Of a stretch of DNA of 64,000 nucleotides, positions 15,261 through 43,668 are shown piece after piece (position 1 is the first letter of the stretch; each line of letters starts with the position of its first letter). The position numbers and the translations under genes were made by a program. This DNA comes from Candidatus Binatia bacterium (GTDB taxonomy: Bacteria; Desulfobacterota; Binatia; UBA12015): contig JAXLXO010000007.1 of the NCBI GenBank assembly GCA_046327915.1, positions 67,347 through 131,346 of the forward strand, written 5' to 3'. The notes beneath the pieces are model-generated. The model saw only the letters and a list, made by a program, of their open reading frames with translations. It was not told where the DNA came from and made no database searches.

Positions 15261-15340
15261 GCGTCCGACCGGGCTGACGGCACGCGCGGCGACTACCGCG
15301 CGTGCCCGGAACCGGTAGACTGGGCTCCCGGGAGTCCACG

Positions 15341-15658
15341 ATGCCGGTCCACAACTACCCTCCCTGCCCCGGTTGCGGCGAGAAGCTGATCCGCAAGCCC
15401 GCGGGCCGGTGTCCGCACTGCGGCGCCGAGGTCGCGCAGTTCGTCGCCGACGAGCGCGACCGCGAGACGCGCATCGAGCAGGTGGTCGCGGTGATCTCGA
15501 CGATCCTCGTCGTGACCGTGATGGTGCTCGGGGGCGGGCTCGGACTCTTCGAGGGCGTGCTGATGTACGCCGCCGCCGGAGCCTTCGTCTGGTATCTCGC
15601 GAAGGGCACCTTCTGGAGCCGGCGCTCCGACCAGACCGGCGGACAGCCCGGCGAGTGA
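15341..15658 (+). CDS. Hypothetical zinc-ribbon plus two-TM small protein.
   Basis: CPGCGEK...CPHCG zinc-ribbon followed by two hydrophobic helices. The ATG at 15341 is preferred over the GTG at 15302. Confidence 0.45.
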   Translation: MPVHNYPPCPGCGEKLIRKPAGRCPHCGAEVAQFVADERDRETRIEQVVAVISTILVVTVMVLGGGLGLFEGVLMYAAAGAFVWYLAKGTFWSRRSDQTGGQPGE

Positions 15659-15662
15659 TCCC

Positions 15663-17611: not shown

Positions 17612-17631
17612 GGCGGCGGTCCATCGGTTCT

Positions 17632-20495: not shown

Positions 20496-20645
20496 CCGGG
20501 ACGCGGCGCCGCGGGATGGGCTGCCCTCGGCCGGCGACGCGTCTCGCTGCACGCGCGGATCGTCGCACGCAGGTCCGGGGGACGCAATTTTCCGGGCTCC
20601 TGCGCTCGCCGCGGGGGCTCGCTCGAGCCTGCGTCCGGCGATACG

Positions 20646-25025: not shown

Positions 25026-25913
25026 TCAGCCGCGCGCGGCGCGAACCCGGGCGACGAACACGAGGCCGAGGGCCAGCAGAGGGAGGCAGGCCCACTGCGC
25101 CGGCGTGAGCCCCGCGTAGGTCGCGTCGCGCACGCGCAGGAAGTCGAGCGCGAAGCGCACCGGCGCGTAGCTGGTCGCGGCGACGGCGACGACCCAGCCG
25201 GCCGGCCGCCGGACGCGCGTGCCGAGCTGCACCACGGCGAACAGCACGATGGTGTACAGCAGCTCGTACAGGCCGAGGTCGTGCCGCACGACGCCGCCCA
25301 TCGACACGCCGAGCGGGAACGTCGTCTCGAGCCCCGGGTGGTCGTGCACCGAGAAGCACGCGAGGCGTCCGAACAGCCAGCCGCCGATGAAGCCGTACAG
25401 CGTGCACTCGAGCCCGCGCAGCAGCGGCACGCCGTGCCGCCGGAACGCGATCGCGGCGGTCAGGCCGCCGCAGACGAAGCCGCCGAAGGACGAGTAGTCG
25501 CTGCGGAAGTCGAGCAGCACGGACGGCTCGAAGAAGCGGCGCGGCTGGTAGAACGCGACGTCGAGCACGTGCGAGCCGACGAAGCCGATCACCAGCATCC
25601 AGCCGACGGCGGCGAAGACGTCCTCCCAGACGAGCCCGAAGCGGTCGGCCCAGCGGTGCATGAGGTGGATGCCGAAGAGCACCCCGAGAGAGACCAGGGG
25701 TCCGAACGGCGCGAGCGTGAGGGGTCCCAGGTGGATCAGTCCGATCTCGCTCGCGCCGAGCACGAAGTTCCGCACGAGGAGTGCTGCGAAGAGCGTCGCG
25801 AACAGCGCAAGCCACAGCGCGGTCGCGACATCGCGTCCCGCCCCAGCGCCGGACTCGGCCGTGGCACCGGTCGCAGCACTCGTCGGATCACCGCTGCGCC
25901 GCGTTCCTGCCAC
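25026..25913 (-). CDS. lgt: Prolipoprotein diacylglyceryl transferase.
   Basis: Polytopic, with Lgt-like blocks (LGPLTLAPFGPLVSLGVLFG, FGGFVCGGLTAAIAF, LGLYELLYTIVLFAVV, RFALDFLRVRDA). Confidence 0.8.
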   Translation of the reverse strand: MAGTRRSGDPTSAATGATAESGAGAGRDVATALWLALFATLFAALLVRNFVLGASEIGLIHLGPLTLAPFGPLVSLGVLFGIHLMHRWADRFGLVWEDVFAAVGWMLVIGFVGSHVLDVAFYQPRRFFEPSVLLDFRSDYSSFGGFVCGGLTAAIAFRRHGVPLLRGLECTLYGFIGGWLFGRLACFSVHDHPGLETTFPLGVSMGGVVRHDLGLYELLYTIVLFAVVQLGTRVRRPAGWVVAVAATSYAPVRFALDFLRVRDATYAGLTPAQWACLPLLALGLVFVARVRAARG

Positions 25914-25993
25914 CCGAGAACTCTACGCAGATCCGGTTCACGTTGCGATCCACCGCACGGCGAAGCGCTGCCGTCTCTGCTAGTTCGACCGGG

Positions 25994-27928
25994 ATGCAGC
26001 CGGCCACCATCGGCACCGCCGGTCCCGCCGGCCACGGCAAGACCGCGCTGGTGCGCGCCCTGTCCGGGCTTCCCGCGGGCGGAGGCGACGCACCCGCCGA
26101 GCCGACGGTCGACCTCGGCTTCGGCTACCACGAGATCGCCGGTCGGCGCTTCGGCGTGGTCGATCTGCCCGGTACGTCGCGTCTCGTCCGGGGGCTCATC
26201 GCAGACGTGCACGGCATCGACCTCGTCCTCCTGGTGGTCGCGGCCGATGCCGGGGTCCTGCCGCAGACCGGGGAGTGCCTCGACATCCTGCACCTGCTCG
26301 ACGCGCGCGACGTCGTCTTCGTGATCACGAAGACGGACCTCGCGGACGCGGCGCGCGTCGACGAGGTCCGCGCGCAGATCGCGACGCTGGCGCGCAGCTC
26401 GCGCTTCGAGAGCGCTCCGGTGCACGCGGTGTCGTGCGTCGATGGAGCGGGCATCGCGGACCTGCGGGCGGAGATCCAGCGCCGTACGGCGCAGCCCGCA
26501 CCGCGTCCCGCCGACGGCTGGTTCCGGATGTTCATCGACCGCTGCTTCCACGTCGCGGGGCGCGGCTTGACGGTGACCGGCACCGTTCTCGCGGGCCGCA
26601 TCCGCCCCGGCGACCCGGTCGCGCTGCGGCCGGGCGGTGTCGTCGGCGACGTGGCGAGCGTGCAGGTGCACGGGCAGAGCGTGCCGGAGGCGACGGTCGG
26701 GCAGCGCGTGGCGGTCCGGCTCGCGGGCACCGATCGCAAGATCGTGCGGCGCGGCGTCGTGCTCGCGGACGCCCGCGTCGAGTTCGCGACCGATCGCGTC
26801 GACTGCTGGATCGAGGTGCGGCCGGGCGCGCAGAAGCCTCTCAAGTCGTTCGAGCGCGTCGAGATCGACCTCGGCACGGTCGAGACCGCCGGCAGCGTGG
26901 TCGTGCTCGAGCCCGGCGACACCCTTGCCCCCGGATCGGCCGGCTTCTGCCAGGTGACGCTCGATCGCGAGATGATTCTCGCGCTCGGCGACCGCTTCGT
27001 GCTGCGTCCGCAGAACGGCACGCGCACCTCTGCGGGCGGCGTGGTCGTGCATCCGTTCGCGGTACGGCACGCGAGCACCGAGCGCAGCGTGACGGAGCGT
27101 CTCGCGCGGCTGCGTTCTTCCGCTCTGCCCGCGCGCGTGCTGGCGTTCCATCAGTTGCTGCCGGAGCTCGCCTCGCCCGTCGCGTACGCCGCGCAGGCGC
27201 TCGGCTGCACGGTCGAGGACGTCCGTCGCGCGGCCGGCGGGATTCCCGACCTGCTCGCGCTGCCGGGCGAGCCGGCCGACGCCTACGCGCTGCGCGAGCG
27301 CTGGGCGAAGCTCGCGGCGAGCGCCGAGGACGTCCTCGGACGCCAGCACCGCGCGCACCCGGAACAGACCGGCATCGACGCCGAGGCATTGCGCTCGGGC
27401 CTGCGCGTACCCGTCCCGCCGCGCCTCCTCGATGCGGTCATCGCCCGCCTGACGACGGAGCGCGTGATCGCCCGCGACGGCGACCTGCTGCGGCTGCCGC
27501 AGCACCAGCCGAGCGCGGCGCCCGTTCCGCCGCCGCCGCGCAAGTCGGTCGCACGCTCGGTGCCGGCCGGCGATCCCGTGTCCCGCATCCGCCGCGCGCT
27601 CGACGCCGGCGGTGCGACGCCGCCCGATCTCCGCCAGCTCGCCGAGGCGACCGGCCTCGCGATCGAACGGGTCACCGAGATCGTCGAGGAGCTCGTCCGC
27701 ACCGGAGACGCGGTGCGGATCAGCGACGACGTCGCCTTCGGCCGCGACGCCTACGCCCGCGCCCGCGAGCAGATCGTCGAGCTCCTCGCGACGAAGCCCG
27801 AGATCACCATGGGCGAGTACCGCACGCGCATCGGCTCGAGCCGCAAGTACGCCCTCGCCCTCCTCGAGCACTTCGACGCCGACGGCCTCACCGTCCGCAT
27901 CGGCGACGCCCGCCGCCTCAAATCCTGA
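25994..27928 (+). CDS. selB: Selenocysteine-specific translation elongation factor SelB.
   Basis: G-domain GHGKT...DLPG...TKTD, EF-Tu-like domains II/III, and C-terminal winged-helix SECIS-binding modules (SSRKYALALLEHFDADGLTVRIGDARRL). Confidence 0.9.
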   Translation: MQPATIGTAGPAGHGKTALVRALSGLPAGGGDAPAEPTVDLGFGYHEIAGRRFGVVDLPGTSRLVRGLIADVHGIDLVLLVVAADAGVLPQTGECLDILHLLDARDVVFVITKTDLADAARVDEVRAQIATLARSSRFESAPVHAVSCVDGAGIADLRAEIQRRTAQPAPRPADGWFRMFIDRCFHVAGRGLTVTGTVLAGRIRPGDPVALRPGGVVGDVASVQVHGQSVPEATVGQRVAVRLAGTDRKIVRRGVVLADARVEFATDRVDCWIEVRPGAQKPLKSFERVEIDLGTVETAGSVVVLEPGDTLAPGSAGFCQVTLDREMILALGDRFVLRPQNGTRTSAGGVVVHPFAVRHASTERSVTERLARLRSSALPARVLAFHQLLPELASPVAYAAQALGCTVEDVRRAAGGIPDLLALPGEPADAYALRERWAKLAASAEDVLGRQHRAHPEQTGIDAEALRSGLRVPVPPRLLDAVIARLTTERVIARDGDLLRLPQHQPSAAPVPPPPRKSVARSVPAGDPVSRIRRALDAGGATPPDLRQLAEATGLAIERVTEIVEELVRTGDAVRISDDVAFGRDAYARAREQIVELLATKPEITMGEYRTRIGSSRKYALALLEHFDADGLTVRIGDARRLKS

Positions 27929-31490: not shown

Positions 31491-32741
31491 TCAGGGCTTC
31501 GCCGGCGCAGTCTTGCTCGCGTCGTCCCGCTGGGCGCGCTCGATCGCGAGCGCGTACTGGAAGTGCTCCGGACGGAGGCTGCCGGGAACCTTGCGGCCGT
31601 TGATGAAGAAGGTCGGCGTGGACTCGACGCCGACGGCCGCGCCGGCCGCGACGTCGGCCGCGACCTTCGCCGCGGCGGCGGGCGACGCGAGGCAGCGCTC
31701 GAACTCGCCTTGGTCGAGACCGAGGCGCGCCGCGTAGCCGACGAGGCTCGGCGTATCGAGCGCGCTCTGGTTCTGGAACAGCGTCCGATAGTACTCCTTC
31801 TGCTTGCCCTGCGCGGACGCGCACTCGTAGGCGACCGCGGCCTGGCAGGCGTGCGGATGCCCCTCCTGCTTGACCTGCGGATTGCAGCCGGAGCTCAGCG
31901 GGAAGTTGCGGTGCACCAGCTTCACCGGAACGCGCGCGGCGTCGAGGATCGGCGTCAGGTCGAGGAACGCGCGGCCGCAGGCGGGACACTCGAAGTCGGA
32001 GAACTCGACCAGCGCGATCTGGTCGGCCGACGCACGATCCTTCTCGTCGAGCTGAAGGTCGATGACCGGCTGCGAGATGTACCAGGCGTAGAAGCGCGGG
32101 TCCTTCTCGCGGATCTCGTCGACCGACATGATCTGCGTGCTGCCGCTCTTCGGCATCTGGATGAAGAGCAGCACGACGACCAGTGCCGCGATCGCGCCGG
32201 CGGTCGGGATCCAGAAGCGGGTCGGCGTCCAGCCCGGCGGAGCCGCGGCGTTCAGCGAACGGACGATCGCGACCGCGGCGCCGAAGAGCGCGATGTTGAC
32301 CGCGTCGAGGCTCAGGCACAGCGGGCACGCGACGCCGATCACGAAGGTCGAGACGGCGAAGAAGTAGAGCGACACGACGAGCATCGCCGCGGTGAACGCC
32401 GCCAGCGTCGCCGCGGCCCGGGTGCGCGCCTCGCTGCGCGCATTGCGCAAGGAGAATGCGAGCGCCGCCGTGGCAAGGTATGCGGCGAGTGCCCAGCCGG
32501 CCACGGGGATGCCGAGGACCTTCGCGTACGAGCTCGCCAGCACCACGTCGCACGACAGGTGGGCCGAGACGTCGCAGAAACTCGTGTAGCCACCCTGGCC
32601 ACTCGAGATCTGATGATGGATATAGAGCACCACCGCGCTCAGGGCGGCGCCCAATCCAGCTAGGACGATGACCAGGACAGGGAGGATTCCGATGTCGGGC
32701 GCCGCTTTCGGGGCTGCAGGGGAGCGACGCGCCGTGCTCAT
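31491..32741 (-). CDS. Vitamin K epoxide reductase (VKOR) domain fused to a periplasmic thioredoxin/DsbA-like domain.
   Basis: VKOR four-helix core with CxxC (ACPLCLSL), and a C-terminal Trx-fold with FECPACG. Confidence 0.85.
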   Translation of the reverse strand: MSTARRSPAAPKAAPDIGILPVLVIVLAGLGAALSAVVLYIHHQISSGQGGYTSFCDVSAHLSCDVVLASSYAKVLGIPVAGWALAAYLATAALAFSLRNARSEARTRAAATLAAFTAAMLVVSLYFFAVSTFVIGVACPLCLSLDAVNIALFGAAVAIVRSLNAAAPPGWTPTRFWIPTAGAIAALVVVLLFIQMPKSGSTQIMSVDEIREKDPRFYAWYISQPVIDLQLDEKDRASADQIALVEFSDFECPACGRAFLDLTPILDAARVPVKLVHRNFPLSSGCNPQVKQEGHPHACQAAVAYECASAQGKQKEYYRTLFQNQSALDTPSLVGYAARLGLDQGEFERCLASPAAAAKVAADVAAGAAVGVESTPTFFINGRKVPGSLRPEHFQYALAIERAQRDDASKTAPAKP

Positions 32742-35700
32742 GACAACGGGCGACTCTACCCAGCCCCCCCATGCGTTTCAACGCGGCCGTCGCGTTCTGC
32801 GAACTCTCTTCTTCGGACTGCTGATTCTGCTGCTCCCGGGGCTCGCGCAGGCGCAGAACCTGGTGCGCAACGGCGGCTTCCTCGAGGCCGACGGCGAGCA
32901 GCCGGCCGGATGGACCACCGAGCAGTGGAGTCCGACCCTCGGCACGACCTTCGGCTGGGAGAAGGGCGTCAGCGGGCTCGGCGCGGTGACGATCCGCAAC
33001 CCGGTCGGCAACGACGCCCGCTGGATCCAGAACGTCCGCGTGCAGCCCGAGACCTGGTACCGCCTCTCGGGCAGCGTCCGCGCGATCGGCGTCACCGCCG
33101 GTTACGGCGCGAGCCTCGGCGTCATGGGCGGCTTCGAGCAGGCCCGCGAGATCAAGGGCGAGGACAGTGGCTGGCAGCAGGTCTCGATGTGGTACAAGAC
33201 CAAGCCCGGCCAGAACCAGCTCACGATCGGCTGCCGTCTCGGCAACTACGGACAGATCGCCGCCGGCGAGGTGCGCTGCACCGGGATCGAGCTCACCGCG
33301 GTCGCGACGCCGCCGCTGAATGCGGACTTCGTCTACGGCCCGCTCGACGAGTCGACGACGCCGGTCGGCGTGCCCGCCGCGCTCGGCATCGTGGCGCTGC
33401 TCGGCATCGCACTCTGGCTCTACGGACGGCTGCCCGCCGAGGTGCCGCTCACCGAGCGGCTCGCGCTGCACGGCGTGCTGGTCGCGCTGCTGATCGCGAA
33501 GTTCCTCGTCGCGCCGTACTTCTCGTACAAGGTCGACATCGGCTCGTACTCGGCGTGGGCTCTGAAGCTCGCGGCCGAGGGACCGGCCCGCTTCTACGCC
33601 CCCGGCTACTTCGCCGACTACCCGCCGGGCTACATGTACGTGCTGTGGGCGGTCGGGCTCGTGAGCCGCCTGTTCCGCGCCGGATGGCAGTCGCCGTGGT
33701 TCGTGGCGCTGCTCAAGCTGCCGGCGCTGCTCGCGGACCTCGCGGTCGCGCGGCTGATCTTCGCGCGGCTTCGTCCGGGGCGGAAGCGCGTCGCGTGGCT
33801 CGCCGCGATGGCCTTCGCGCTGAACCCCGCGCTGCTGCTGAACTCGACCATCTGGGGCCAGACCGACTCGGTCCTGGCACTGCTCGCGCTGCTCGCATTC
33901 CTCGCGCTGGGAGACCGACGCTTCGAGCTCGCGTGGAGCCTCGCGGCGCTCGCGATCCTGACCAAGCCGCAGGCGTTGCTGCTCGTGCCGCTGTTCGTGC
34001 TCTGGCCGTGGGGCTGGTGGAAGAGCGGACGTCCGCTGTCGGCGCTGCTCGCGATCCTCGCGACGGTGTTCGTCGTCGCCGACCCGTTCCGCGGCGAGCG
34101 TCCGTGGACCTGGCTGGTCGAGCTCTACACCGGCACGACCGGCTACTACGCGGAGACCTCGGTCAACGCGATGAACCTGCCGGCGCTGCTCTTCGGCATG
34201 CGCGGCAACGACGCCGAGCGCTATCTCGGCGTCGGCACGCAGACGTGGGGCTTCGCGATCGGGCTCGTCGTCGGCCTGATCTTCCTCGTGCCGTACCTGC
34301 GGCGGCGCACGCGCTCGCTGCACGCGGGGCTCGTCGCCGCGGCGACGCTGGTCGCGTTCATGTGCTTGACGCGCATGCACGAGCGCTACCTCTACCCGTA
34401 CTTCGTGTTCGCCGGCCTGATCGGCGTCACCGGACGGTGGGGCGTCCTGTACTGGGTGCTGTCGGCGCTGTTCTTCGCCAACGAACTGCTGGTCTACCTC
34501 TACCAGGCCGACGCGACCGCCGGTCCCGTCTGGCTGTGGAAGACGCTGTCGGTGCTCGGCGTCGCGTGCGTCCCGGTGGCGGCCTGGCTGTACTGGCGGC
34601 TCGCCGGACGGCAGGACGACCCGCCGGGCGCGGCGGCGCTCGACGAGGACGATGCGCGCTGGCAGCAGTCGCTCGAGACCGCGCAGGCGGCCGCGGCTAC
34701 GCGCGCACCGGCGGAACGTCCGGTGACGGCGGGCACGCCCGACGAGGGCACCGGACCGTCGTGGCGCTGGCACGAGGTCGCGTTCCTTCTTGTGCTGACC
34801 GCGGCGTCGCTCGGACTGCGCCTGCACGACCTCGCCAATCCGACCGACCTGGTGTTCGACGAGGTCTACTTCGTCGAGCAGGGCCGGGACTACCTCGAAG
34901 GCAAGGACTTCATGGACCCGCACCCGCCGATCGCGAAGCTGACGATCGGCCTCGGGATCAAGCTGTTCGGCGACACGCCGACCGGCTGGCGGACGATGAA
35001 CGCGATCGTCGGCACGGCGCTGGTGCCGCTCATGTACCTGCTCGGCCGCGTGCTGTTCCGCCGCCGCCTCGCCGCGGCGTTCGCCGCGTTCTTCGTCGCG
35101 TTCGACGGGCTGTGTCTCGTCGACTCGCGCATCGCGGTGATCGACATCCACTACGTCACGTGGGGCGTCGCGGGCTACGTGAGCGCGCTCTACATGGTCC
35201 GCAAGCAGGAGTGGGAGCGAACGTGGCGCCTGCTCCTGACCGGCGTCCTGATGGGGCTCTCCGTCGCGGCGAAGCTCTACATCCCCTTCTTCAGCTTCCT
35301 GCTCGTGCTCGGCACGATCGGGCTCACGGCGTGGGGCTTCGCCAAGCAGCGCGGCATCGCGCCGCTGCGCTTCGCGCTGTGGCCGGTGTTCGTCGTCGGG
35401 CTCGTCGCGAGCGTGGTGTACGTGCTGTCCTACACGCCCCACTTCTGGTGGGGCTGGTGGCACTCGCCGCTCGACCTCGTCAAGTACATCGTGTTCCGCG
35501 TGCCCGAGTACCAGGCCGCGGTGAAGGACGCGACGCACCCGTACAGCTCGAAGTGGTGGACGTGGCCGCTGCTGCTGCGTCCGGTCTGGTACTACTGGAA
35601 GGATCCCGGACCGGCGCCCGGCATGGTCGTCGGCATCTGGGGCTCGGGCAATCCGCCGGTGTGGTGGGCGGCGCTGCCCGCGCTGATCCTGTGCACGTAC

Positions 35701-36183
35701 TACGCCGTGCGCGAGCGGCGGCTCGCACTGATCTTCGTGGTCGCGGGCTGGGTCATCCACCTCGCGCCGTGGGTCGGCATCAGCCGCACGCTGTTCCTCT
35801 ACCACTACCTGCCGTCGCTGCTGTTCGCGTTCCTCGCGCTGTCGTGGACCCTCGACCGCATCTGGAACGGCGAGGGCAGCACGATCGAGCGCGGGCTCAT
35901 CGGCGCGACGCTGCTGGCGAGCATCCTGCCGGTCGCGATGGCCACGCTGGGCAGCTGGGGGCCGCTGGTCTTCCTCGCCCTGCTGCTCGCGTACGAGGGC
36001 CTGCTGTTCTCCAGCGAGCGCGACCAGCTGCGCGTCGGGCGCGCGGCCGTCGCCCTCTACTGTGTCGCGATCCTCGCGGTCGCGATGTACTTCCTGCCCA
36101 TCTGGCTCGGGACCCCGGTCACCAAGCGCGCCTGGGAGGCGCGCATGTGGATCTCGGGCTCGAAGTTCATGAACTGGATATGA
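32740..36183 (+). CDS. Large fused GT-C glycosyltransferase: signal peptide, CBM4/9-like module, DUF2029/GT87-like GT-C domain (DYPPGY), then PMT/GT39-like GT-C domain.
   Basis: N-terminal NGGFLEADGEQPAGW... beta-sandwich signature, then about 11 TM segments with YFADYPPGYMYVLWAV. A second polytopic half opens with DEVYFVEQGRDYLEGKDFMDPHPPIAKLTIGLGIKLFG (PMT family). Start at 32740 (MTTGDS..., signal peptide). Confidence 0.8.
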   Translation: MTTGDSTQPPHAFQRGRRVLRTLFFGLLILLLPGLAQAQNLVRNGGFLEADGEQPAGWTTEQWSPTLGTTFGWEKGVSGLGAVTIRNPVGNDARWIQNVRVQPETWYRLSGSVRAIGVTAGYGASLGVMGGFEQAREIKGEDSGWQQVSMWYKTKPGQNQLTIGCRLGNYGQIAAGEVRCTGIELTAVATPPLNADFVYGPLDESTTPVGVPAALGIVALLGIALWLYGRLPAEVPLTERLALHGVLVALLIAKFLVAPYFSYKVDIGSYSAWALKLAAEGPARFYAPGYFADYPPGYMYVLWAVGLVSRLFRAGWQSPWFVALLKLPALLADLAVARLIFARLRPGRKRVAWLAAMAFALNPALLLNSTIWGQTDSVLALLALLAFLALGDRRFELAWSLAALAILTKPQALLLVPLFVLWPWGWWKSGRPLSALLAILATVFVVADPFRGERPWTWLVELYTGTTGYYAETSVNAMNLPALLFGMRGNDAERYLGVGTQTWGFAIGLVVGLIFLVPYLRRRTRSLHAGLVAAATLVAFMCLTRMHERYLYPYFVFAGLIGVTGRWGVLYWVLSALFFANELLVYLYQADATAGPVWLWKTLSVLGVACVPVAAWLYWRLAGRQDDPPGAAALDEDDARWQQSLETAQAAAATRAPAERPVTAGTPDEGTGPSWRWHEVAFLLVLTAASLGLRLHDLANPTDLVFDEVYFVEQGRDYLEGKDFMDPHPPIAKLTIGLGIKLFGDTPTGWRTMNAIVGTALVPLMYLLGRVLFRRRLAAAFAAFFVAFDGLCLVDSRIAVIDIHYVTWGVAGYVSALYMVRKQEWERTWRLLLTGVLMGLSVAAKLYIPFFSFLLVLGTIGLTAWGFAKQRGIAPLRFALWPVFVVGLVASVVYVLSYTPHFWWGWWHSPLDLVKYIVFRVPEYQAAVKDATHPYSSKWWTWPLLLRPVWYYWKDPGPAPGMVVGIWGSGNPPVWWAALPALILCTYYAVRERRLALIFVVAGWVIHLAPWVGISRTLFLYHYLPSLLFAFLALSWTLDRIWNGEGSTIERGLIGATLLASILPVAMATLGSWGPLVFLALLLAYEGLLFSSERDQLRVGRAAVALYCVAILAVAMYFLPIWLGTPVTKRAWEARMWISGSKFMNWI

Positions 36184-36881
36184 GCGCGCGTCCGACCCGA
36201 TCGTCCCTGGTGCTCGCCGTCCTCGCGGCGGTGCTCGCGCTCGCGCCCGCGGCGCACGCGTCCACCGAGCTGGTCAAGAACGGACTTCTGGCCGACGGCA
36301 CCGACGGCAAGCCGAAGGACTGGCGCAACGACGCCTACTCGGCGGACGCGAGCCGGCTGACGTGGCTCGTCGACCCGAGCGGGCTCGGCGTGCTGTCGAT
36401 CGACAGCGACCAGCCGAACGACGCGCGCTGGGTGCAGACCGTCCCGGTCTCGCCGAACACCTGGTACCAGGTGTTCGGCTGGCTGCGCGCGGAGAAGGTC
36501 GGCGCTCAGGCGATGGGCGTCTACCTGTCGGTGCTCGACACGTTCTACAACTCGCGCGACCTGCGCGGCGATGCGCCGTGGCAGCCGGTCTCGTTCTGGG
36601 TGAAGACCGGCTCGATCGACACGTCGCTGCAGATCGCCTGCCGCGTCGGCGGCTACAGCTCGCTCAACACCGGCCACGGCTGGTGCACCGGCATCTCGGT
36701 GATGGCCGCGGGCACGCCGCGCTCGGGCGATCCGTTCGTGTTCGGCGGCACCGCGCCCGGCGGCGAGGGGGGATCGCAGGACCTGCCGGTCGCGAAGGGC
36801 GTCGCGGTGCTCGTCGTCGTCGGTATCGTGCTGCTGGCGTGGCGCTACCTGGCACCGCCGTCGGTGCGCATCCCGCGGTGA
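36180..36881 (+). CDS. Exported CBM4/9-like module protein with a C-terminal TM anchor. It is a paralog of the N-terminal module of the upstream glycosyltransferase.
   Basis: Signal peptide MSARPTRSSLVLAVLAAVLALAPAAHA, then LVKNGLLADG...DW...NDARWVQTVPVSPNTWYQVFGW...WCTGISV aligning block-by-block with residues 40-200 of the upstream protein, then VAVLVVVGIVLLAW. The start overlaps the upstream stop (ATGA). Confidence 0.65.
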   Translation: MSARPTRSSLVLAVLAAVLALAPAAHASTELVKNGLLADGTDGKPKDWRNDAYSADASRLTWLVDPSGLGVLSIDSDQPNDARWVQTVPVSPNTWYQVFGWLRAEKVGAQAMGVYLSVLDTFYNSRDLRGDAPWQPVSFWVKTGSIDTSLQIACRVGGYSSLNTGHGWCTGISVMAAGTPRSGDPFVFGGTAPGGEGGSQDLPVAKGVAVLVVVGIVLLAWRYLAPPSVRIPR

Positions 36882-38449
36882 GACGCGCGCGGGCCGCGGC
36901 GCTGCTGCTGCTCACACTGGTGGGCGGCGTGCTGCGCTTCTCGTCGACCGACTTCGGGCTGCCCGACAAGTACCGGCCCGACGAGGAGTACATGGTGTCG
37001 CGCGCGCTCGGCTTCGACCGCGACTGGAATCCACACTTCACGGTCTATCCGGCTGCGCAGATGTACGTGCAGCACGGCGTGCTCCGCGCGTACGCGCTGC
37101 TGCACGGCTACAAGCGCAACTTTCGCGAGGTCTACGCGACCGACAAGCAGGCGCTGGCCTGGCTGATCGCGCGTCGCACGTCGGCCGCCTTCGGTACCGC
37201 CACGATCCCCGCGACCTATCTCGCCGCCGCGCAGGCGTTCGGGCCGCAGGCGGCCCTCGCCGCCGCGACCATCGTGACGTTCTCGACGATCCACGTGCGC
37301 GAGTCGAAGTACGCGACGACCGACGCCGCGACGACGTTCTGGCTGACCATCGTGCTGTGGCTCGTGCTGCGCGTGATCCGGCTGGGGCGCGTGCGCGACT
37401 CGCTGCTCGCCGGACTCTTCACCGGCTTCGCGATCGCCAACAAGTATCCCGCGGGCGCTGCGATGGTGGCGCTCGGCCTCGCGCACTTCGAGGCACGCTG
37501 GCGCGAGGGACGCTCGCTGTGGCGCACCGTGCGCGACATCCGCCCGTACGTCGCGGTCTACGCGGCGGTGGTCGCGTTCCTCTGCGCGACGCCGTACTTC
37601 GTCCTCGACTGGGACCAGACCGCGAAGGACTTCGCCTACCAGCGCGGATTCGTGCAGAACGGCGTCGGCAACGTCGCGGCGGGCTACGGCTGGTCGTGGC
37701 TCGCGTACAAGGTCCTGCCGCACTCGTTCGGCACGGCGCTCGCGCTGCTGCTGGTCGCGGGGCTGGTGTGGGCGCTGATCCGTCCCGCGCTCGGCACGCT
37801 GCCGATCCTCGCGTTCGTGCTGGTCGCGTTCGCCGGCATGGCCGGCAGCCGCTACTCGTTCTACCGCTACGTCATGGTGCCCCTGCCGGGGCTCGTGCTG
37901 CTCGGCGGACGGCTCGTCGCGAGCGTCGGCGACGGTCTCGCGCGCCGCATGACGGAGCGACGCGCACACGCGGTCGTCGCGGCGGCGCTGCTCGCCCTGC
38001 TCGTGCCGTCGGTGATCCGCGACGTGAAGCTGAACCGCATCCTCGCGCGGCGCGACACGCGCACCATCGCGCGCGAGTGGATCGAGCAGAACCAGCCCGG
38101 GGGCGGTGCGGTCGCGGCGAGCGACCACGGCACGCCGTACGGCAAGCCGCAGCTGCCGCCGAACTACACATGGGTGCCGATCGAGGACGTCGCGACGCTG
38201 CGCGCGAAGGGCGTGCGCTTCGTCGTCGCCGACACCTCGCCGCTGGAGTTCTACTCGCACGGCCCGACGCCGGAGCAGCTCGCCGACCTCGAGAAGAACG
38301 CGAAGCTCGTGCTCGACGAGGATCCGGTCGACCCGGACGGTCCGCCGCCGGTGTTCGACATGGCCGACGCGTTCTACGCACCCCTGCAGCACGCCTCGAG
38401 CATGTCGCGGCCCGGACCGCGCATCCGCATCTGGCGCATCGATCCTTGA
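36878..38449 (+). CDS. Glycosyltransferase family 39 / ArnT-like (PMT_2) GT-C membrane protein.
   Basis: FGLPDKYRPDEEYMVSRALGF... plus 10-12 TM helices and a C-terminal soluble domain. The GTG start overlaps the upstream stop (GTGA). Confidence 0.8.
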   Translation: MRRARAAALLLLTLVGGVLRFSSTDFGLPDKYRPDEEYMVSRALGFDRDWNPHFTVYPAAQMYVQHGVLRAYALLHGYKRNFREVYATDKQALAWLIARRTSAAFGTATIPATYLAAAQAFGPQAALAAATIVTFSTIHVRESKYATTDAATTFWLTIVLWLVLRVIRLGRVRDSLLAGLFTGFAIANKYPAGAAMVALGLAHFEARWREGRSLWRTVRDIRPYVAVYAAVVAFLCATPYFVLDWDQTAKDFAYQRGFVQNGVGNVAAGYGWSWLAYKVLPHSFGTALALLLVAGLVWALIRPALGTLPILAFVLVAFAGMAGSRYSFYRYVMVPLPGLVLLGGRLVASVGDGLARRMTERRAHAVVAAALLALLVPSVIRDVKLNRILARRDTRTIAREWIEQNQPGGGAVAASDHGTPYGKPQLPPNYTWVPIEDVATLRAKGVRFVVADTSPLEFYSHGPTPEQLADLEKNAKLVLDEDPVDPDGPPPVFDMADAFYAPLQHASSMSRPGPRIRIWRIDP

Positions 38450-38499: not shown

Positions 38500-38862
38500 A
38501 TGGCGACGGCGAAGAAGGTCACGGTCTACCACAACCCGGTGTGCGGCAAGTCGCGCGGCGCACTCGAGATCCTCGATCAGCGCGGCATCGACCACGAGGT
38601 GATCGAGTACCTGAAGTCCCCGCTCGATCGCGCGACGCTCGAGCACTTCCTCGATCTCCTGCCCGGCGCACCCGCGGAGCTGCTGCGCAAGGACAAGCGG
38701 TTCAAGGAGCTCGCGCTGAACGAGGCCGACTACCAGACGCGCGCGCAGGTCGTGGACGTCCTGCTGAAGCACCCGGAGCTCATGGAGCGTCCCGTCGTGA
38801 TCCACGATGGCCGGGCGATCATCGCGCGACCGTCCGAGAAGGTGCTCGAGCTGTTCGATTGA
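38500..38862 (+). CDS. ArsC/Spx-family protein (YffB-like, glutaredoxin fold).
   Basis: VTVYHNPVCGKSRGALEIL N-terminal active-site Cys context. 120 aa. Confidence 0.85.
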   Translation: MATAKKVTVYHNPVCGKSRGALEILDQRGIDHEVIEYLKSPLDRATLEHFLDLLPGAPAELLRKDKRFKELALNEADYQTRAQVVDVLLKHPELMERPVVIHDGRAIIARPSEKVLELFD

Positions 38863-40283
38863 AGGATCTTCCGGCACACCCGGCGTCCGAGCCCGACGAG
38901 CACGCGACGTCGTACGCACCCGCCGAGGACGGCTCGCTGCTGCACGGCGGCGCGCTGGTGTTCTTCGACGGTCCGATCGAGCGCCTCGACGTCGTCCGCG
39001 CCGTCGCGCGCGCGGCGCTGGTGCACCCGCAGCTGCGGAACCGCCCGGTGACGGTCCCGCTCGCCGCGGACCTGCTCGCGTGGACGCCGGATGCGACCTT
39101 CCGCGCGAGCCGCCAGGTGCGCGTCGTGGACCTCGACGACGTGCGCGACCGCGCGGCGCTGCAGCGCGCCGTCGCGATGGTGTGGTCGGAGCCGCTGCCG
39201 GCGCAGCGTCCGCCGTGGCAGGTGGTCGCGTTCAGCGACGGGCACGGCGGTCCGACCGTGGTGCTCGTGAAGGCGCACGTCGCACTGGTGCGCGCCTTCG
39301 GCGTCGCCGGCCTCGCGGACGTCCTCCTCGGCACGCCGATCGACGCGACGCCGCCGCCGGCGCCGCTGCGACGCGAGCGGCCCGGTGTCGTTCCGGCGCT
39401 GCTCGATACCGCCGCGTCGCTGGCCGAGGAGGGAGCGCGCCGCTCGCGCGCGCTCGCGGGCGAGGTGCGGGCCATGCTGCGCCCGGGTGTCGCGCTCGAG
39501 CGCACGCGCGAGGTCGGACGCATCCTCGAGTCGGCCGGTACTCTGCTGTCGTCGCCGGCGCCGGAGACGCCGTGGAACGCGGAGCTCGGCGCCGAGCGCC
39601 GCGTCGCGTGGCTCGCGCTGTCTCGTGACGTGATCGCCGGGATCGAGGACATGCTCGGCGGCGACTGGGAGGACGCGTGGCTGACGATCGTCGCCGACGC
39701 GCTCGGACGCTACCTGCGCGACGGCGGGCGCTCGACGATCGGCCTCACGCTGCTCGCCTACGTGCCAGGAGAGGAGCACGGCCACGGCGCCTCGGTGCTG
39801 TCGTCCGCGGCGATCCACGCGACGGCGCGTCTGGTGGCGCTGCCGGTCGACGAGATGTCGCCGGGCGCCCGTCACGCCGAGATCCGCCGCAGCCGCCAGC
39901 ATCCGCTCTCGGCGGCACGCGGCTCCGGTGTCGAGCAGCTCGCGCGCATGTCGCACCGTCTGCCGGGACCGCTGCAATCGCTCCTCGGATCGCTCTGCTA
40001 CCAGGCGGCGAATACCGTCGTGCTCGACGAGGAAGCTCCCGCGCGATGCTTGACGCTCGGGCTTCGGTCCGCGACGAGTCTCGTGCCGCTCGCGATGCTG
40101 CCGTGGCATGTCGGACTCGCGATCGCCGCATGCGTCTCGGCCGATCGCGACCTGATGGTCGGCGTGACCGCAGACGCGGCGCTCGTCCCGTCGGTCGCCG
40201 ACGTGGTGCGTGCCCTGCACGACGCCTACGTCGACACCGCCGCCGCGGCGGGCGTGCCGCCGATCGAGCCGCACGCGCGCTGA
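38859..40283 (+). CDS. Hypothetical protein, faintly WS/DGAT- or condensation-domain-like.
   Basis: 474-aa ORF with high GC3. A possible TTG start overlaps the ArsC stop. The block TVVLVKAHVALVRAFGVAGLADVLLG is reminiscent of an HHxxxDG acyltransferase motif but is not canonical. Confidence 0.4.
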   Translation: MKDLPAHPASEPDEHATSYAPAEDGSLLHGGALVFFDGPIERLDVVRAVARAALVHPQLRNRPVTVPLAADLLAWTPDATFRASRQVRVVDLDDVRDRAALQRAVAMVWSEPLPAQRPPWQVVAFSDGHGGPTVVLVKAHVALVRAFGVAGLADVLLGTPIDATPPPAPLRRERPGVVPALLDTAASLAEEGARRSRALAGEVRAMLRPGVALERTREVGRILESAGTLLSSPAPETPWNAELGAERRVAWLALSRDVIAGIEDMLGGDWEDAWLTIVADALGRYLRDGGRSTIGLTLLAYVPGEEHGHGASVLSSAAIHATARLVALPVDEMSPGARHAEIRRSRQHPLSAARGSGVEQLARMSHRLPGPLQSLLGSLCYQAANTVVLDEEAPARCLTLGLRSATSLVPLAMLPWHVGLAIAACVSADRDLMVGVTADAALVPSVADVVRALHDAYVDTAAAAGVPPIEPHAR

Positions 40284-40307: not shown

Positions 40308-41633
40308 TCAGCGGCGCGCGGTTCCCGCGTCGAGCGTCGCGAGCGCCTCGCCGACGCGCCGACGTCGCGCCTGCAGCCACTCGTCCTCGGGCGACGTGCG
40401 CGCCAGGTACGTCCCGTAGAGCACGCGTGCGAGGGCGCGCGGGCTCTTTCCTGCCGCACCGGCCACCAGCTCGCGCGTGGCCGGCCGGCTGCCGAGCACC
40501 GCGACGACGTCACGCCACGACTCGCGCTGCTGCTCGACGTCGGTGCGCAGCACGACGAGGCTGTCGGCGAGGTCGAGCAGCACGCCGTCGTCGCGCGGCG
40601 CGAGCGCCAGCGCCATGGCGAGCGTCCGCGCGGCACCCGGCTTGCCGGCCTCGAACTCCAGACGACCCAGAAGCCGCCATGTCTCCGGGGCGCAACCGTC
40701 CACCGCGAGCGCGTCGCGCAGGCGTGCCGTTGCGGTGTCGCCGTCGAGCCCGCTGGCGGCGCGCGTCGCCGACTTCGTCAGCGTCCGGACGGTCTCCTGC
40801 TGCCACGTCGCCAGCGTCTGACGGCCGGCCTGCTTCCACGCCTGGTCCAGCGGGGTGCCGAGACAACGGAAGCTGTCGGTCTCCTGCCACTGGCCGTCGG
40901 CGAAGTGCAGCACGCGGCCGCTCGTGCGGGCGCCGCTCGCGGTTGCGTTGCCGCCGAGCGCGTCGACCTGCCACGTCTCGACCAGCTGACCGTCGTGCGT
41001 CTCGAAGCGCGACGTCGGCGTGAGGCGGGGCGCGCAGGCGAACATCGCGCGGCGTCGGCGCAGCCACCAGCCGCACGCCCCGACCAGCGGCTGGCGCGCG
41101 TCGTCGGGCTGCAGCAGCTCCGCGAGCACGACCGGCTCGTCGCGCGACGACGCGTCGAGCAGCAGCACGCGGCCGATGCGCGCCGGCGCCGGCGTGTCCG
41201 ACCCGGCGTCGCCGAAGTCGTGCTCGGCAATCAGCAGACCTTCCGGCGCCGAGACGTCGAAGAGCAGCAGGTGCGGCGCGCCGCTCGGGCCGTCGCGCTT
41301 CGCCGACGCCAGCGCCATCGCCCAGTGCGTGCCGTCGCCGGCCGCGACCAGCTTGCCGAGGTCCGTGCCGGGCGGCAGAGCCTTCGCCGCTCGCGCGCGC
41401 CGCTCGGCGTCGTCGCGCGGCGGGATCGGCGGCGGGCCGGGCGGCGTCTTCGCCGCCGCATCCGCGCTGTCGGCAGTCTGCGTGGCCTGCGTCGCGAGCT
41501 GGCGCTGGATCGCCTCGAACTCGGCCATGCCGAGCTGCTGCTTCTTCGGCGCGCACGCTCCGAGAGCCGCGCACGCGGCGAGAAGCGCGACGATCCGTCC
41601 GGCGCGTCGCGCGGCGCGTACGCTCGTCGTCAC
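40308..41633 (-). CDS. Hypothetical lipoprotein.
   Basis: Lipobox ALLAACAALGAC followed by a Pro-rich linker (PPGPPPIPPRDD). No known domain. Confidence 0.55.
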   Translation of the reverse strand: MTTSVRAARRAGRIVALLAACAALGACAPKKQQLGMAEFEAIQRQLATQATQTADSADAAAKTPPGPPPIPPRDDAERRARAAKALPPGTDLGKLVAAGDGTHWAMALASAKRDGPSGAPHLLLFDVSAPEGLLIAEHDFGDAGSDTPAPARIGRVLLLDASSRDEPVVLAELLQPDDARQPLVGACGWWLRRRRAMFACAPRLTPTSRFETHDGQLVETWQVDALGGNATASGARTSGRVLHFADGQWQETDSFRCLGTPLDQAWKQAGRQTLATWQQETVRTLTKSATRAASGLDGDTATARLRDALAVDGCAPETWRLLGRLEFEAGKPGAARTLAMALALAPRDDGVLLDLADSLVVLRTDVEQQRESWRDVVAVLGSRPATRELVAGAAGKSPRALARVLYGTYLARTSPEDEWLQARRRRVGEALATLDAGTARR

Positions 41634-41691: not shown

Positions 41692-43668
41692 TCAGGGCTG
41701 CACGGGGATGGTCGCGACGTCCTCGTACGCGAGCGAGTGCATGAAGGCGGTCCACTGCGCGCGCGCCGGCTCGAAGTTGAAGAACGGGAAGTGGCCCTGC
41801 GCGTCGTAGAGCGCGAGCCCGCCGGTCGCCGTCTTCTTTCCCTTCACGAGGTTGCCCGACACCGGCGGCGACAGCGTCGGCAGCCCCGCGAGGTCGAACG
41901 CCTCCTGGTACTGGTAGCCCGGCAGCTCGGGGAACGAGATCGGCGGGAACGTCGGCGCCAGCAGCGGATAGCCCGCACCGACGACCATCGCGGTGACCAT
42001 CGGCGTCGGCACGTAGCCGTCGGCGGTTCCGTGCGTGAACAGGATCGACAGCGGCGCGCCCTTGCGGCGCTTCGCGAACAGCGGCGAGAACACCGCCGGG
42101 TCCGAGACCTCGCTGCCCATCTGCAGCAGGTGCAGCGCGGGGTGGAAGAGATCGACCGGACCGCCGAGCAGGATCTCCACCAGGTCGCGCAGCTTGAGCC
42201 CGGCGTAGAACTCCTGCTCGCGGCTCAGGATGTTGACTAGCAGGTGCCCGCCACCGGCCGAGATCACTCCGCCGAGGACTCCGTGCGCGACGCCGAGGAA
42301 GAGCGGTCCCGTGGTCGCTCCCTGCGAGTGGCCGACGTACATGACGCGCTTGCGGTCGAAGCGGATCGTCTTCGACGTCGTCGTGAAGCCTGCACCGGGG
42401 ACGGCGGACGCGAGCAGGTCCGGGTCGAGCGTCAAGCGCCGCACGAGCTCGTGCACGGCGAGCGAGTCGGTCGCCGCCTGCAGCGGGTTGTCGCGCAGCG
42501 CGTCCGGATTCAGCGGGTTGTAGAAGTTGGTGCCGTCGGCGGTCGCGCCGGGCCGAAGCCCGTGCAGCGGCTGGTCGATGCCGATACCCGCGATGCCCTG
42601 AGCCGCGAGGCGCCCCGCCGTGCCGTCGTTCACGAAGCTGTTCCGGCTGCCGCCGGTGCCGTGCATGTAGGGCGCGATCGGCCAACCCTTCTTCGGCAGC
42701 GGCAGCGTGCCGTCGTCGCGCTCCTTGGGCACGGTCAGGACGAAGCTCAGCACGTCGTGACGCTGCACGAGCGGGCGTCCCTTGCCGTCGAACTGGTAGA
42801 TGCCGGAGCCGGCGGCGGAGAACGGCGGCGTGCCGGTCTGGAACTGCGGCGCGAGAAACGTTCCCGTGAAGGTCCAGTAGGCGCCCGTCGAGCGCGCCGC
42901 GTCGAGCGCAAGATTCGTCGCCTCCGGACGCACCTTCGCGCGGACGAAGCGCTCGACCGACTGCATCGGCGCCGTCGGGTCGCCGGTGCGGAACACCGTG
43001 GCTCCGACCACGTGCTCGCGCGACAGCCCCTCCTCGCGCTCGAGCTGCTTCCACAGCTTCTCGAAGAGAGGCAGCGCTGCCGCCTCGAACGACGTCGTCG
43101 CGGCCCCCGCCCGCATCTGCTCGACGAACGGCGAGGCCGTGACCGGAGCCGCGTCTGCGCCGTGCAGGTCGTCGGTGACCACCAGCGCGTAGAGCGTGTC
43201 GGGCTCGAGCGGCAGCCCCGGGACCGGCATCGCCGCGAGCAGGTGATCGTCACGCCACGCGTCGCCCGTGTCGCGAAACTCGATCCACAGCGGCGTGCGT
43301 GTCCCGCGCGCCTTCGAGCGCGGGTCGATGTCGATCAGGAAGAGGCTCGAGCCGGGCGCCGCGCTGGCGGCGGGGTCTGCGGGCAGCGTCGCGGGATCGA
43401 TCGCGCCGTCGAACTTGAGGAACACGCCGGACGCGAGCCCGAAGCCGCGCGTCCGCTCCAGGGCGACGCGATACGACTGCACCAGCGCGTTCGCCGGAAA
43501 CGGAAAGCTCGCGAGCGACACGCTGCCGTCGCCGTCGCGACGCAGCTCCATGGGGAACGGCACGTCGTAGAACGAGGCTCCCTCCGGGTCGAAGATCTGC
43601 TGCACCGCGGGCGCAGGCGTCGCGGCGAGGACGAGCAGAAGGAGGGCGAGCGGGGCGCGGAGCGGCAT
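41692..43668 (-). CDS. Secreted alpha/beta-hydrolase (lipase/esterase-like) with a long N-terminal domain.
   Basis: Signal peptide MPLRAPLALLLLVLAATPAPA. Nucleophile elbow VGHSQGATTG about 430 aa in. GGAGG RBS upstream. Confidence 0.7.
   Translation of the reverse strand: MPLRAPLALLLLVLAATPAPAVQQIFDPEGASFYDVPFPMELRRDGDGSVSLASFPFPANALVQSYRVALERTRGFGLASGVFLKFDGAIDPATLPADPAASAAPGSSLFLIDIDPRSKARGTRTPLWIEFRDTGDAWRDDHLLAAMPVPGLPLEPDTLYALVVTDDLHGADAAPVTASPFVEQMRAGAATTSFEAAALPLFEKLWKQLEREEGLSREHVVGATVFRTGDPTAPMQSVERFVRAKVRPEATNLALDAARSTGAYWTFTGTFLAPQFQTGTPPFSAAGSGIYQFDGKGRPLVQRHDVLSFVLTVPKERDDGTLPLPKKGWPIAPYMHGTGGSRNSFVNDGTAGRLAAQGIAGIGIDQPLHGLRPGATADGTNFYNPLNPDALRDNPLQAATDSLAVHELVRRLTLDPDLLASAVPGAGFTTTSKTIRFDRKRVMYVGHSQGATTGPLFLGVAHGVLGGVISAGGGHLLVNILSREQEFYAGLKLRDLVEILLGGPVDLFHPALHLLQMGSEVSDPAVFSPLFAKRRKGAPLSILFTHGTADGYVPTPMVTAMVVGAGYPLLAPTFPPISFPELPGYQYQEAFDLAGLPTLSPPVSGNLVKGKKTATGGLALYDAQGHFPFFNFEPARAQWTAFMHSLAYEDVATIPVQP

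Follow-up and report, generated by a model that had tools for sequence, protein, structure and literature searches.

The 64,000-nucleotide stretch analyzed here (the window, which supplies all coordinates below) comes from an uncultured Candidatus Binatia bacterium (contig JAXLXO010000007.1, positions 67,347 to 131,346) and carries on its forward strand a tightly packed module of three genes. Instead of representing an entirely new system, the module is most likely an uncharacterised variant of the protein O-mannosyltransferase (PMT) complex described in mycobacteria and yeast. Gene 1 fuses two different membrane glycosyltransferase domains of the GT-C type, one GT87-like and one belonging to family GT39 (PMT), behind an exported carbohydrate-binding module (CBM) of the CBM4/9 type; gene 2 encodes a membrane-anchored paralog of this module, and gene 3 encodes a further PMT-like GT-C enzyme. 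We propose that the module specifies a periplasm-facing, polyprenol-phosphate-sugar-dependent protein O-glycosylation complex, and we assign to this proposal a probability of about 0.55. It agrees with the bacterial protein O-mannosylation-like pathway that had been suggested in an earlier reading of the same DNA, made from the sequence alone and referred to below as the original prediction.

Domain order and topology of gene 1

The polypeptide encoded by gene 1 (residues are numbered from the start at 32740) begins with a Sec-type signal peptide, the hydrophobic core of which spans residues 19–37 and which ends with AQA before QN, the predicted cleavage site. An external β-sandwich follows, and then a transmembrane (TM) anchor that leads via a short cytoplasmic turn to TM1 of the GT87-like domain, the first of the two GT-C domains; both a hydropathy scan and the AlphaFold2 (AF2) model agree on this topology. 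The full-length AF2 model has a predicted local distance difference test (pLDDT) value of 84, with residues 655–670 of the linker between the GT-C domains falling below 50, and each of its parts matches solved structures in Foldseek searches. The signal peptide together with the TM anchor places the CBM of gene 1 outside. Both GT-C domains begin on the cytoplasmic side, so that in each of them the first loop is exposed to the periplasm. This loop, located directly after TM1, bears Asp266 in domain 1 and Asp707-Glu708 in domain 2. The claim of the original prediction that a single polypeptide joins two different GT-C domains was borne out by the Pfam profiles GT87 (PF09594), PMT (PF02366), and PMT_4TMC (PF16192), all of which match gene 1 above their cutoffs.

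The PMT domain of gene 1

Domain 2 matches PF02366 over residues 685–903 (E = 1.4e-26, 94 bits versus a cutoff of 22.7) and PF16192 over residues 925–1139 (E = 1.2e-24, 87.4 bits versus a cutoff of 32.4). The DE motif, Asp707-Glu708 within DEVYFV, directly follows TM1 of the domain, with His728-Pro729-Pro730 positioned further on. Conservation was counted in 80–81 non-identical sequences from several phyla, with ~27% identity, and in domain 2 the residues Asp707, Glu708, His728, Pro729, Arg751, Trp942, Trp1011, Arg1016, and His1022 are invariant (80 of 80). Yeast and fungal Pmt4, Pmt2, and Pmt1 are the matches of this domain among PDB sequences, and Foldseek returns Pmt4 (9i5k_A, E = 4.9e-12, TMt 0.74), as well as 6p25 and 9e61. 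To our knowledge, PMT and PMT_4TMC combined with a DE motif have so far been found in protein O-mannosyltransferases only. Domain 2 is a distant member of the GT39 family.

The GT87-like domain of gene 1

Domain 1 matches PF09594 over residues 294–543 (E = 2.5e-8, 34.4 bits versus a cutoff of 25); the domain in isolation scores 37.5 bits, and the same profile matches 15 of 16 family members. Its Foldseek matches include PimE (9dm7_A, TMt 0.66; 9dm5, TMt 0.58) and GPI-MT-I (9wno_A, TMt 0.64), as well as ALG3 and ALG6, at a closeness comparable to that of PimE. Since GPI-MT-I, ALG3, and ALG6 are as near as PimE, the fold cannot discriminate between families of GT-C enzymes. When a profile of the domain was compared with PDB sequences, GPI-MT-I (E = 2.9e-6) and ALG6 were the only matches, and PimE was not matched.

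In PimE, the first juxtamembrane helix bears the catalytic base, Asp58, at its tip, Tyr62, Tyr92, and Lys195 are essential, and His321/His322 are important (PMC12041525). In the AF2 model of gene 1, Asp266 opens the first helix after TM1, with Tyr270 at position +4 and Tyr300 at +34, and the spacing of Asp266, Tyr270, Tyr300, Lys409, and His547 echoes that of PimE Asp58, Tyr62, Tyr92, Lys195, and His322. Residues Asp266, Asp293, Tyr294, Tyr298, Asp333, Trp372, Asp376, Lys409, and Pro410 are found in all 81 sequences, as are His547, Glu548, Arg549, and Asn581, whereas Gln374 is present in 80 of 81. Because PimE-like catalytic residues are kept in 81 of 81 sequences, the GT87-like domain is probably an active enzyme, and the invariance of its residues does not, as far as sequence conservation can tell, sit easily with a role confined to structure.

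Gene 3 and the number of active sites

Gene 3 matches the Pfam profiles PMT and PMT_2 at 38 and 37 bits, each above its cutoff, and its earlier description as a further PMT-like GT-C enzyme therefore holds. A jackhmmer run connects it to the PMT domains of the fusions. Compared with ArnT (GT83), the picture consists of these PMT/PMT_2 matches at 37–38 bits, searches of NCBIfam for ArnT and of PDB sequences having returned nothing. The first outer loop carries an invariant PDEE motif (Pro34, Asp35, Glu36, Glu37), further invariant residues are Lys144, Asp149, Lys189, and His203, and a C-terminal soluble domain of ~140 residues is presumably periplasmic. Every one of the 142 homologs of gene 3 comes from Binatia-like metagenome-assembled genomes (MAGs). 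An interpretation of genes 2 and 3 as a split CBM–GT-C gene was rejected after the long gene 3 homologs P0313 and P0314 had been checked and found to contain no fusion.

The number of active sites might be smaller than three. Mycobacterial Pmt (GT39, Rv1002c) co-purifies with a GT87-like protein, MSMEG_6899/Rv0051, which is said to lack catalytic residues, yet is important for the function of Pmt (bioRxiv 10.64898/2026.07.15.738315). If the module followed this model, and that of Pmt2 in the yeast Pmt1–Pmt2 structure, the GT39 domain would be the sole enzyme, with the GT87-like domain and possibly gene 3 serving as non-catalytic, acceptor-recruiting partners, and the fusion itself would argue mainly for obligatory dimerization. 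Such an arrangement appears distinctly unlikely when set against the retention at PimE-analogous positions of Asp266, Asp293, Asp333, Asp376, Lys409, and His547-Glu548-Arg549 in every sequence, and of Gln374 in all but one, as well as against the invariant PDEE motif and the Lys, Asp, and His residues of gene 3, since conservation of this kind is unexpected in a scaffold.

The CBM-like modules of genes 1 and 2

Gene 2 is clearly paralogous to the N-terminal module of gene 1, the two sharing 38% identity over 160 residues (E = 1e-31), in keeping with the earlier description of gene 2 as a stand-alone, membrane-anchored copy of the gene 1 module. The structure model of gene 2 (pLDDT 88) consists of a β-sandwich followed by a C-terminal TM helix, in agreement with Foldseek, and its cytoplasmic tail contains the conserved sequence WRYLAPPSxRIP. 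The module of gene 1 is all-β in the AF2 model and is matched by Foldseek to 4d0q and 1gui. The fold of both modules is of the β-sandwich (jelly-roll) type seen in CBM4, 9, 16, and 22.

No Pfam profile, CBM_4_9 included, matches gene 2 or the N-terminal module of gene 1 at E ≤ 1, an NCBIfam search with these modules gave no match, and sequence and profile searches of PDB returned noise only. Because the direct searches gave nothing, the CBM4/9 assignment rests on the fold and on intermediates. A profile of the gene 2 family found 2405 cluster representatives among 1.84 billion proteins, and 63 multidomain hits of this wider family were sampled for Pfam profiling. CBM_4_9 was present in 29 of these 63 relatives and CBM_4_9_1 in 12, while PMT_2, PMT, and GT87 were present in 20, 14, and 11, respectively. 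In P0337 and P0335, CBM_4_9 (PF02018) and the gene 2 profile cover the same residues. On the grounds of fold and transitive homology, both modules are divergent members of the CBM4/9 superfamily; the predicted CBM4/9-like sandwich thus stands by way of intermediates, but a direct Pfam match to CBM_4_9 does not.

Other GT-C enzymes also have sugar-binding modules on the periplasmic or lumenal side: eukaryotic PMTs carry MIR domains, and EmbA/B/C and AftD carry CBMs. About one third of the multidomain relatives sampled carry the CBM-like module on PMT_2, PMT, or GT87 proteins; its pairing with GT-C enzymes is common, not exceptional, and dedicated periplasmic CBMs can no longer be counted as a novelty of this locus, as had been supposed. 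All 77 close homologs of gene 2 come from Binatia-like MAGs. The Trp, Tyr, Gln, and Arg residues that are invariant in the gene 2 family are only suggestive of putative carbohydrate binding. In a rough neighbor-joining tree the fused CBMs of the window clade are sisters to its stand-alone CBMs, which points to a duplication of the CBM within this clade.

Distribution of GT87–PMT fusions

Relatives were sought in one genome per GTDB species; at least 589 were confirmed in these species-representative genomes, and the best 80 of the at least 589 loci were examined. Both GT-C domains are present in all 80, and in most of them they are fused. The fusions occur in at least seven phyla, and the 80 loci include Binatia, Bacillota, Patescibacteria, Planctomycetota, Spirochaetia, Cyanobacteria, and proteobacterial MAGs. 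Every close relative comes from a MAG labelled Candidatus Binatia, or carrying the older labels "Deltaproteobacteria" or "Thermodesulfobacteriota".

Hidden Markov model searches of all open reading frames (ORFs) in these loci sorted them, along with a few further loci, into five classes. In class (a), the window clade of Binatia (the window, L001, L002, L009, L011, and L012), a divergent VKOR-DsbA gene is followed by the CBM-GT87-PMT fusion, the CBM-TM gene, and gene 3. Locus L010 of the same clade has VKOR-DsbA, the fusion, and gene 2, with no gene 3 homolog within 7 kb downstream. Class (b), the Binataceae type, comprises 24 loci in which a GT87-PMT gene without the N-terminal CBM is followed immediately and in every case by a CBM-TM gene, and in at least 15 distinct loci the gene after that encodes a PA14-containing, PMT_2-like membrane protein of 657 residues. 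Class (c), the UTPRO1 type, has a CBM-GT87-PMT gene followed by a gene for a 394-residue LA_3751-like putative glycosyltransferase; two GT2 enzymes, the best matches of which are polyprenyl or dolichyl-phosphate hexose transferases, are encoded not more than 3 kb from the fusion. Class (d) includes ~30 loci of Bacillota (Paenibacillus, Bacillus, Gorillibacterium, Christensenellales, and Oscillospiraceae) with a single CBM-GT87-PMT gene of 1250–1440 residues, and class (e) comprises GT87-PMT proteins of ~800–1000 residues with no CBM, from Patescibacteria, Planctomycetota, Cyanobacteria, Lachnospiraceae, and proteobacterial MAGs.

In three clades, namely the window clade, Binataceae, and UTPRO1, a third putative GT-C gene is located after the CBM gene or after the fusion. 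Gene 3 was rejected as a universal component, in view of its absence from L010 and of the non-orthologous third GT-C genes in the other clades. The CBM is fused N-terminally in 30 loci, nearly all of them from Bacillota, and both fused and stand-alone forms are present in the window clade. GT87 and PMT are encoded by separate adjacent genes in L039, L041, and L061, and the Spirochaetia locus, L039, has the pair in split form only. Split halves thus occur in some Spirochaetia, Phycisphaerae, and Binatia-like genomes, and in one Paenibacillus genome the split may be a frameshift (L039, L041, L061, and L077 taken together).

To judge from the sequences compared, the GT87–PMT partnership is ancient, and the CBM is a recurring subunit of GT87–PMT systems. 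The order of the module's genes is conserved in homologous loci, and its supposed uniqueness is not supported, since relatives are widespread, if uncharacterised. The statement in the original prediction that no dual GT-C fusion with CBMs had been described is likewise superseded, both by the at least 589 relatives and by a preprint of July 2026 in which a single sentence mentions Paenibacillus GT39 enzymes fused to a GT87-family enzyme, V9WAU2, as the equivalent of mycobacterial Pmt with Rv0051 (bioRxiv 10.64898/2026.07.15.738315). Apart from this preprint, no mention of a GT87–GT39 fusion was found in the literature searched. The link between V9WAU2 and the Bacillota CBM-GT87-PMT fusions is one of architecture only.

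Comparison with known systems

The module and the mycobacterial Pmt complex have in common a GT39 PMT together with a GT87-family protein, a periplasmic β-rich accessory, the DE motif, and, as predicted for the module, a lipid-linked donor. The GT-C proteins are separate in mycobacteria, whereas here they form one polypeptide, and the GT87-like protein of mycobacteria is reportedly inactive as an enzyme, whereas the GT87-like domain described here keeps catalytic-type residues. Rv3212, which also co-purifies with Pmt, folds as an eight-bladed propeller in the periplasm; modelling placed it above the active site of Pmt, and it was compared to MIR domains, while the third partner of Pmt is Rv1209 (bioRxiv 10.64898/2026.07.15.738315). 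Instead of the propeller, a CBM4/9 β-sandwich is present here in two copies; neither an Rv3212-type β-propeller nor an Rv1209 DivIVA-like gene was found in the module, and the accessory role would be taken by the CBM β-sandwiches. The third GT-C enzyme (gene 3) is another difference, as is the host, which belongs to Binatia rather than to Actinobacteria.

The GT39 fold, the DE motif, and PMT_4TMC are shared with yeast Pmt1–Pmt2 and with the Pmt4 homodimer (6p25, 9i5k, 9e61). Eukaryotic PMT dimers also resemble the module in bringing two GT-C units together and, if the CBMs play their proposed part, in having a lumenal or periplasmic lectin-like cap over the active site, although the partner is a second GT39 in those dimers and a GT87-like domain here. 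The MIR β-trefoil that eukaryotic PMTs carry in the TM7–TM8 loop is absent here, and the CBM4/9 sandwich is instead N-terminal or separately encoded.

The Bacillota fusions, such as that of Paenibacillus (P0097, 1286 residues), have the same order of CBM, TM helix, GT87-like domain, and PMT domain, 27–33% full-length identity, and the same invariant residues. They differ in being single genes, with no stand-alone CBM gene or gene 3, except for L057, which has an extra CBM ORF. Some of them bear additional F5/8 or CBM_4_9_1 domains, and they are likewise uncharacterised.

PimE (GT87), a polyprenol-P-mannose:PIM4 alpha-1,2-mannosyltransferase (9dm5, 9dm7), is similar to domain 1 in its fold (TMt 0.58–0.66), in the Asp that opens the first juxtamembrane helix, and in the similar spacing of Tyr, Lys, and His; it differs in not being fused to a PMT and in having no profile sequence match to the domain. 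EmbA/B/C and AftD also carry periplasmic carbohydrate-binding β-sandwiches on GT-C enzymes and form multi-GT-C complexes, but they belong to GT53, are weak structural matches, have C-terminal or internal CBMs, and act on arabinan substrates. An identity of the module as an Emb/Aft-type arabinosyltransferase was rejected, as no Pfam or NCBIfam family match was found.

The likeness to these enzymes bears on an alternative in which the three GT-C sites would extend a lipid-anchored or wall-linked mannan-like polymer from polyprenol-phosphate sugar, with the CBMs holding the growing chain and with proteins not being the acceptor, comparable to PimE, MptA–C, and Emb/Aft for lipomannan and lipoarabinomannan. 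The characterised members of GT87 are glycolipid mannosyltransferases (PimE), and three GT-C modules with two CBMs, with Emb among the structural matches, resemble processive polysaccharide machinery. Relatives of the CBM module are mostly located in glycan-active proteins, together with CBM_4_9, PA14, or F5/8, and a WS/DGAT lipid acyltransferase is encoded after the operon in this sub-clade, although it is missing in L002. We nevertheless consider such a lipoglycan or polysaccharide machine unlikely, because PMT with PMT_4TMC and a DE motif is to date known solely from protein O-mannosyltransferases, and because Emb/Aft-type family matches are lacking in Pfam and NCBIfam. Moreover, the sole experimental pairing of GT39 with GT87 is a protein mannosylation complex (bioRxiv 10.64898/2026.07.15.738315).

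Proposed function of the module

Returning to protein O-glycosylation, we infer that the products of genes 1–3 assemble into one inner-membrane complex with periplasmic active sites and with polyprenol-phosphate-linked sugars as donors. Gene 1 would be a covalently fused pair, comparable to Pmt with Rv0051 in mycobacteria and, architecturally, to the Pmt1–Pmt2 dimer in yeast. Its PMT domain would first move a hexose, most likely mannose, from the polyprenol-phosphate sugar to Ser/Thr residues of proteins emerging into the periplasm; the GT87-like domain would then add a further sugar, and gene 3 would add or vary another residue. The two CBM4/9 sandwiches, located at the membrane surface, may serve as caps with a lectin-like function, recognising either the acceptor or the glycan as it is being built, a role modelled on proposals made for the MIR domains of eukaryotic PMTs and for the Rv3212 β-propeller.

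Several observations weigh against this proposal. The fusion family is uncharacterised in every member, and characterised GT87 enzymes use glycolipids, not proteins, as acceptors. The actinobacterial Pmt equivalog NF058602 of NCBIfam scores only 59.5 bits versus a cutoff of 800, so that the PMT domain is no ortholog of actinobacterial Pmt and its acceptor could differ. The equivalence of residues with PimE is drawn from spacing and helix position, not from superposition, and a catalytic role of the GT87-like domain is extrapolated from residue conservation alone, with the mycobacterial counterpart reported to be dead. Finally, a polyprenol-phosphate mannose synthase was looked for within the 64-kb window and none was found.

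We can speculate further that the module carries out protein O-glycosylation in several steps and on its own: its three GT-C sites would all be active, starting an O-mannose-type glycan and lengthening it, and its two lectin-like CBM caps would choose the substrate. The GT87 partner of PMTs would then be ancestrally catalytic, and PMT-type O-glycosylation would be widespread outside Actinobacteria. This extension is possible, though we hold it tentatively and with some doubt. If it is true, PMT-type O-glycosylation would take place in Binatia, Bacillota, Patescibacteria, and Planctomycetota, none of which has ever been investigated for it. Work on bacterial protein O-mannosylation has dealt almost solely with Actinobacteria, and the composition of Pmt with a GT87-like partner and a cap emerged only in 2026. 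The locus and its relatives provide independent gene-fusion ("Rosetta stone") evidence for an obligate pair of GT39 and GT87-like enzymes across many phyla. They also suggest that a lectin-like periplasmic cap is a general requirement met by different folds in each lineage (MIR, β-propeller, or CBM4/9), and residue conservation suggests that the GT87-like partner of a PMT can itself be active, as the second enzyme of the pair. The same CBM-GT87-PMT gene is present in Paenibacillus species, which makes these ideas genetically testable in a cultivable organism.

Gene boundaries and packing

The features of the locus, which lies in a chromosome segment with 70–75% G+C, are listed in Table 1. Gene 1 may start at ATG 32692 (1163 residues) or at ATG 32740 (1147 residues). 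The former is likelier, because the sequence GGGAGG at 32680–32685 is positioned 6 nt upstream of it and because the resulting length equals that of P0001, which is 98% identical to gene 1 and has 1163 residues; the start at 32740 is the less likely one. The 16 residues added in the longer form precede the signal peptide, and nothing else is altered.

Table 1. Coordinates of the features of the three-gene module and of the divergent upstream gene.
Feature	Coordinates	Strand	Basis
VKOR-DsbA fusion oxidoreductase	31491–32741	−	Pfam VKOR (E = 1.9e-25), Thioredoxin_4, DSBA
Gene 1, CBM-TM-GT87-like-PMT fusion	32692 or 32740–36183	+	ORF and translation
N-terminal region of gene 1 with Sec-type signal peptide	32740–32853	+	Hydropathy scan and sequence reading
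CBM4/9-type β-sandwich, residues ~39–200, predicted periplasmic	32854–33339	+	Paralogy to gene 2, AF2, Foldseek
CBM-anchoring TM helix, residues 208–229	33361–33426	+	Hydropathy scan, AF2 model
GT87-like (DUF2029/PimE-like) GT-C domain, residues ~235–625	33442–34614	+	Pfam, Foldseek, PDB profile, conservation
Acidic Ala/Pro-rich linker between GT-C domains, residues ~626–675, low confidence	34615–34764	+	pLDDT, poor conservation
GT39/PMT domain with C-terminal PMT_4TMC module, residues ~676–1147	34765–36180	+	Pfam, PDB, Foldseek, conservation
ATGA overlap, gene 1 stop and gene 2 start	36180–36183	+	Base reading
Gene 2, 233 residues, membrane-anchored CBM4/9-type module: signal peptide; β-sandwich, ~29–180; linker; C-terminal TM helix, 203–224; tail	36180–36881	+	ORF and translation
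GTGA overlap, gene 2 stop and gene 3 start	36878–36881	+	Base reading
Gene 3, 523 residues, PMT-superfamily GT-C enzyme	36878–38449	+	ORF and translation

As originally described, the three genes lie on the forward strand and overlap at their ends, as read directly in the bases. The ATG of gene 2 (36180–36182) overlaps the TGA stop of gene 1 (36181–36183), and the GTG of gene 3 (36878–36880) overlaps the TGA stop of gene 2 (36879–36881). Homologs of gene 3 likewise have 523 residues and an identical 4-nt overlap, and the tight packing is retained in homologous loci at 60% identity and below. The conserved packing, together with the start/stop overlaps, supports one operon of genes 1–3 with coupled translation. 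The stoichiometric co-expression that the overlaps had been taken to imply goes further than this evidence, as an overlap supports co-translation and is no proof of fixed or 1:1 stoichiometry.

Neighboring genes

Envelope protein-maturation factors adjoin the module, namely VKOR-DsbA and a PpiC-type rotamase. Like the tight packing and the two GT2 enzymes near the UTPRO1 fusion, these neighbors are a hint in favor of the proposed function. The VKOR-DsbA gene, the start of which may instead be near 32654, was correctly placed directly and divergently upstream of gene 1. It is adjacent and divergent in the window, L001, L002, and L009–L014, is located ~4 kb away in UTPRO1, and is absent from the Binataceae loci. 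The linkage is lineage-level synteny, a matter of context rather than a core part of the module, and a role for VKOR-DsbA as a functional partner was set aside as unproven, its adjacency being confined to part of Binatia. Depending on the choice of starts, VKOR-DsbA and gene 1 overlap at their 5′ ends or are separated by no more than 37 bp (32654–32781). The only sigma-70-like promoter match in this region is on the minus strand (32781–32753); it lies within the 5′ part of the gene 1 reading frame, a short distance upstream of the VKOR-DsbA ATG at 32741. For the thioredoxin part of VKOR-DsbA, the best match in NCBIfam is to a thioredoxin-like (seleno)lipoprotein family (E = 2.5e-18, under the cutoff). 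A few genes upstream (25721–27928) lies the gene for the selenocysteine elongation factor SelB, which in L002 (2134–5426) is accompanied by SelA.

Downstream of gene 3, a 50-bp gap with no terminator-like site is followed by an ArsC/Spx-family gene (38500–38862) and the WS/DGAT acyltransferase gene (38859–40283), which overlap by 4 nt. The same pair comes after gene 3 in L001 and is missing from that place in L002, so that in this sub-clade the transcription unit may extend beyond genes 1–3. Further on, 40308–41633 encodes a 441-residue conserved exported lipoprotein-like protein with a weak TPR match and no convincing Pfam family, and 41692–43668 (minus strand) encodes a 658-residue conserved exported protein with a signal-peptide-like N terminus and no Pfam match; their equivalents in L001 (407 and 658 residues) have no Pfam hit on record. 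On the other side of the module, a stop-to-stop ORF of 1991 codons (19029–25004) contains an Lhr-type helicase. Its true start is probably far downstream of the ORF start, because the Lhr domains begin at about residue 570 and the L002 homolog has 1434 residues.

In the UTPRO1-type locus L003, three paralogous proteins, secreted or lipoprotein-like, are encoded on either side of the fusion (6613–7851 on the minus strand, and 14961–19141); they have 412, 569, and 804 residues, 32–41% mutual identity, and no Pfam matches. In the 412-residue protein, a lipobox precedes a Thr/Pro-rich linker that resembles known target regions of O-mannosylation, and the three proteins are possible candidate acceptor substrates.

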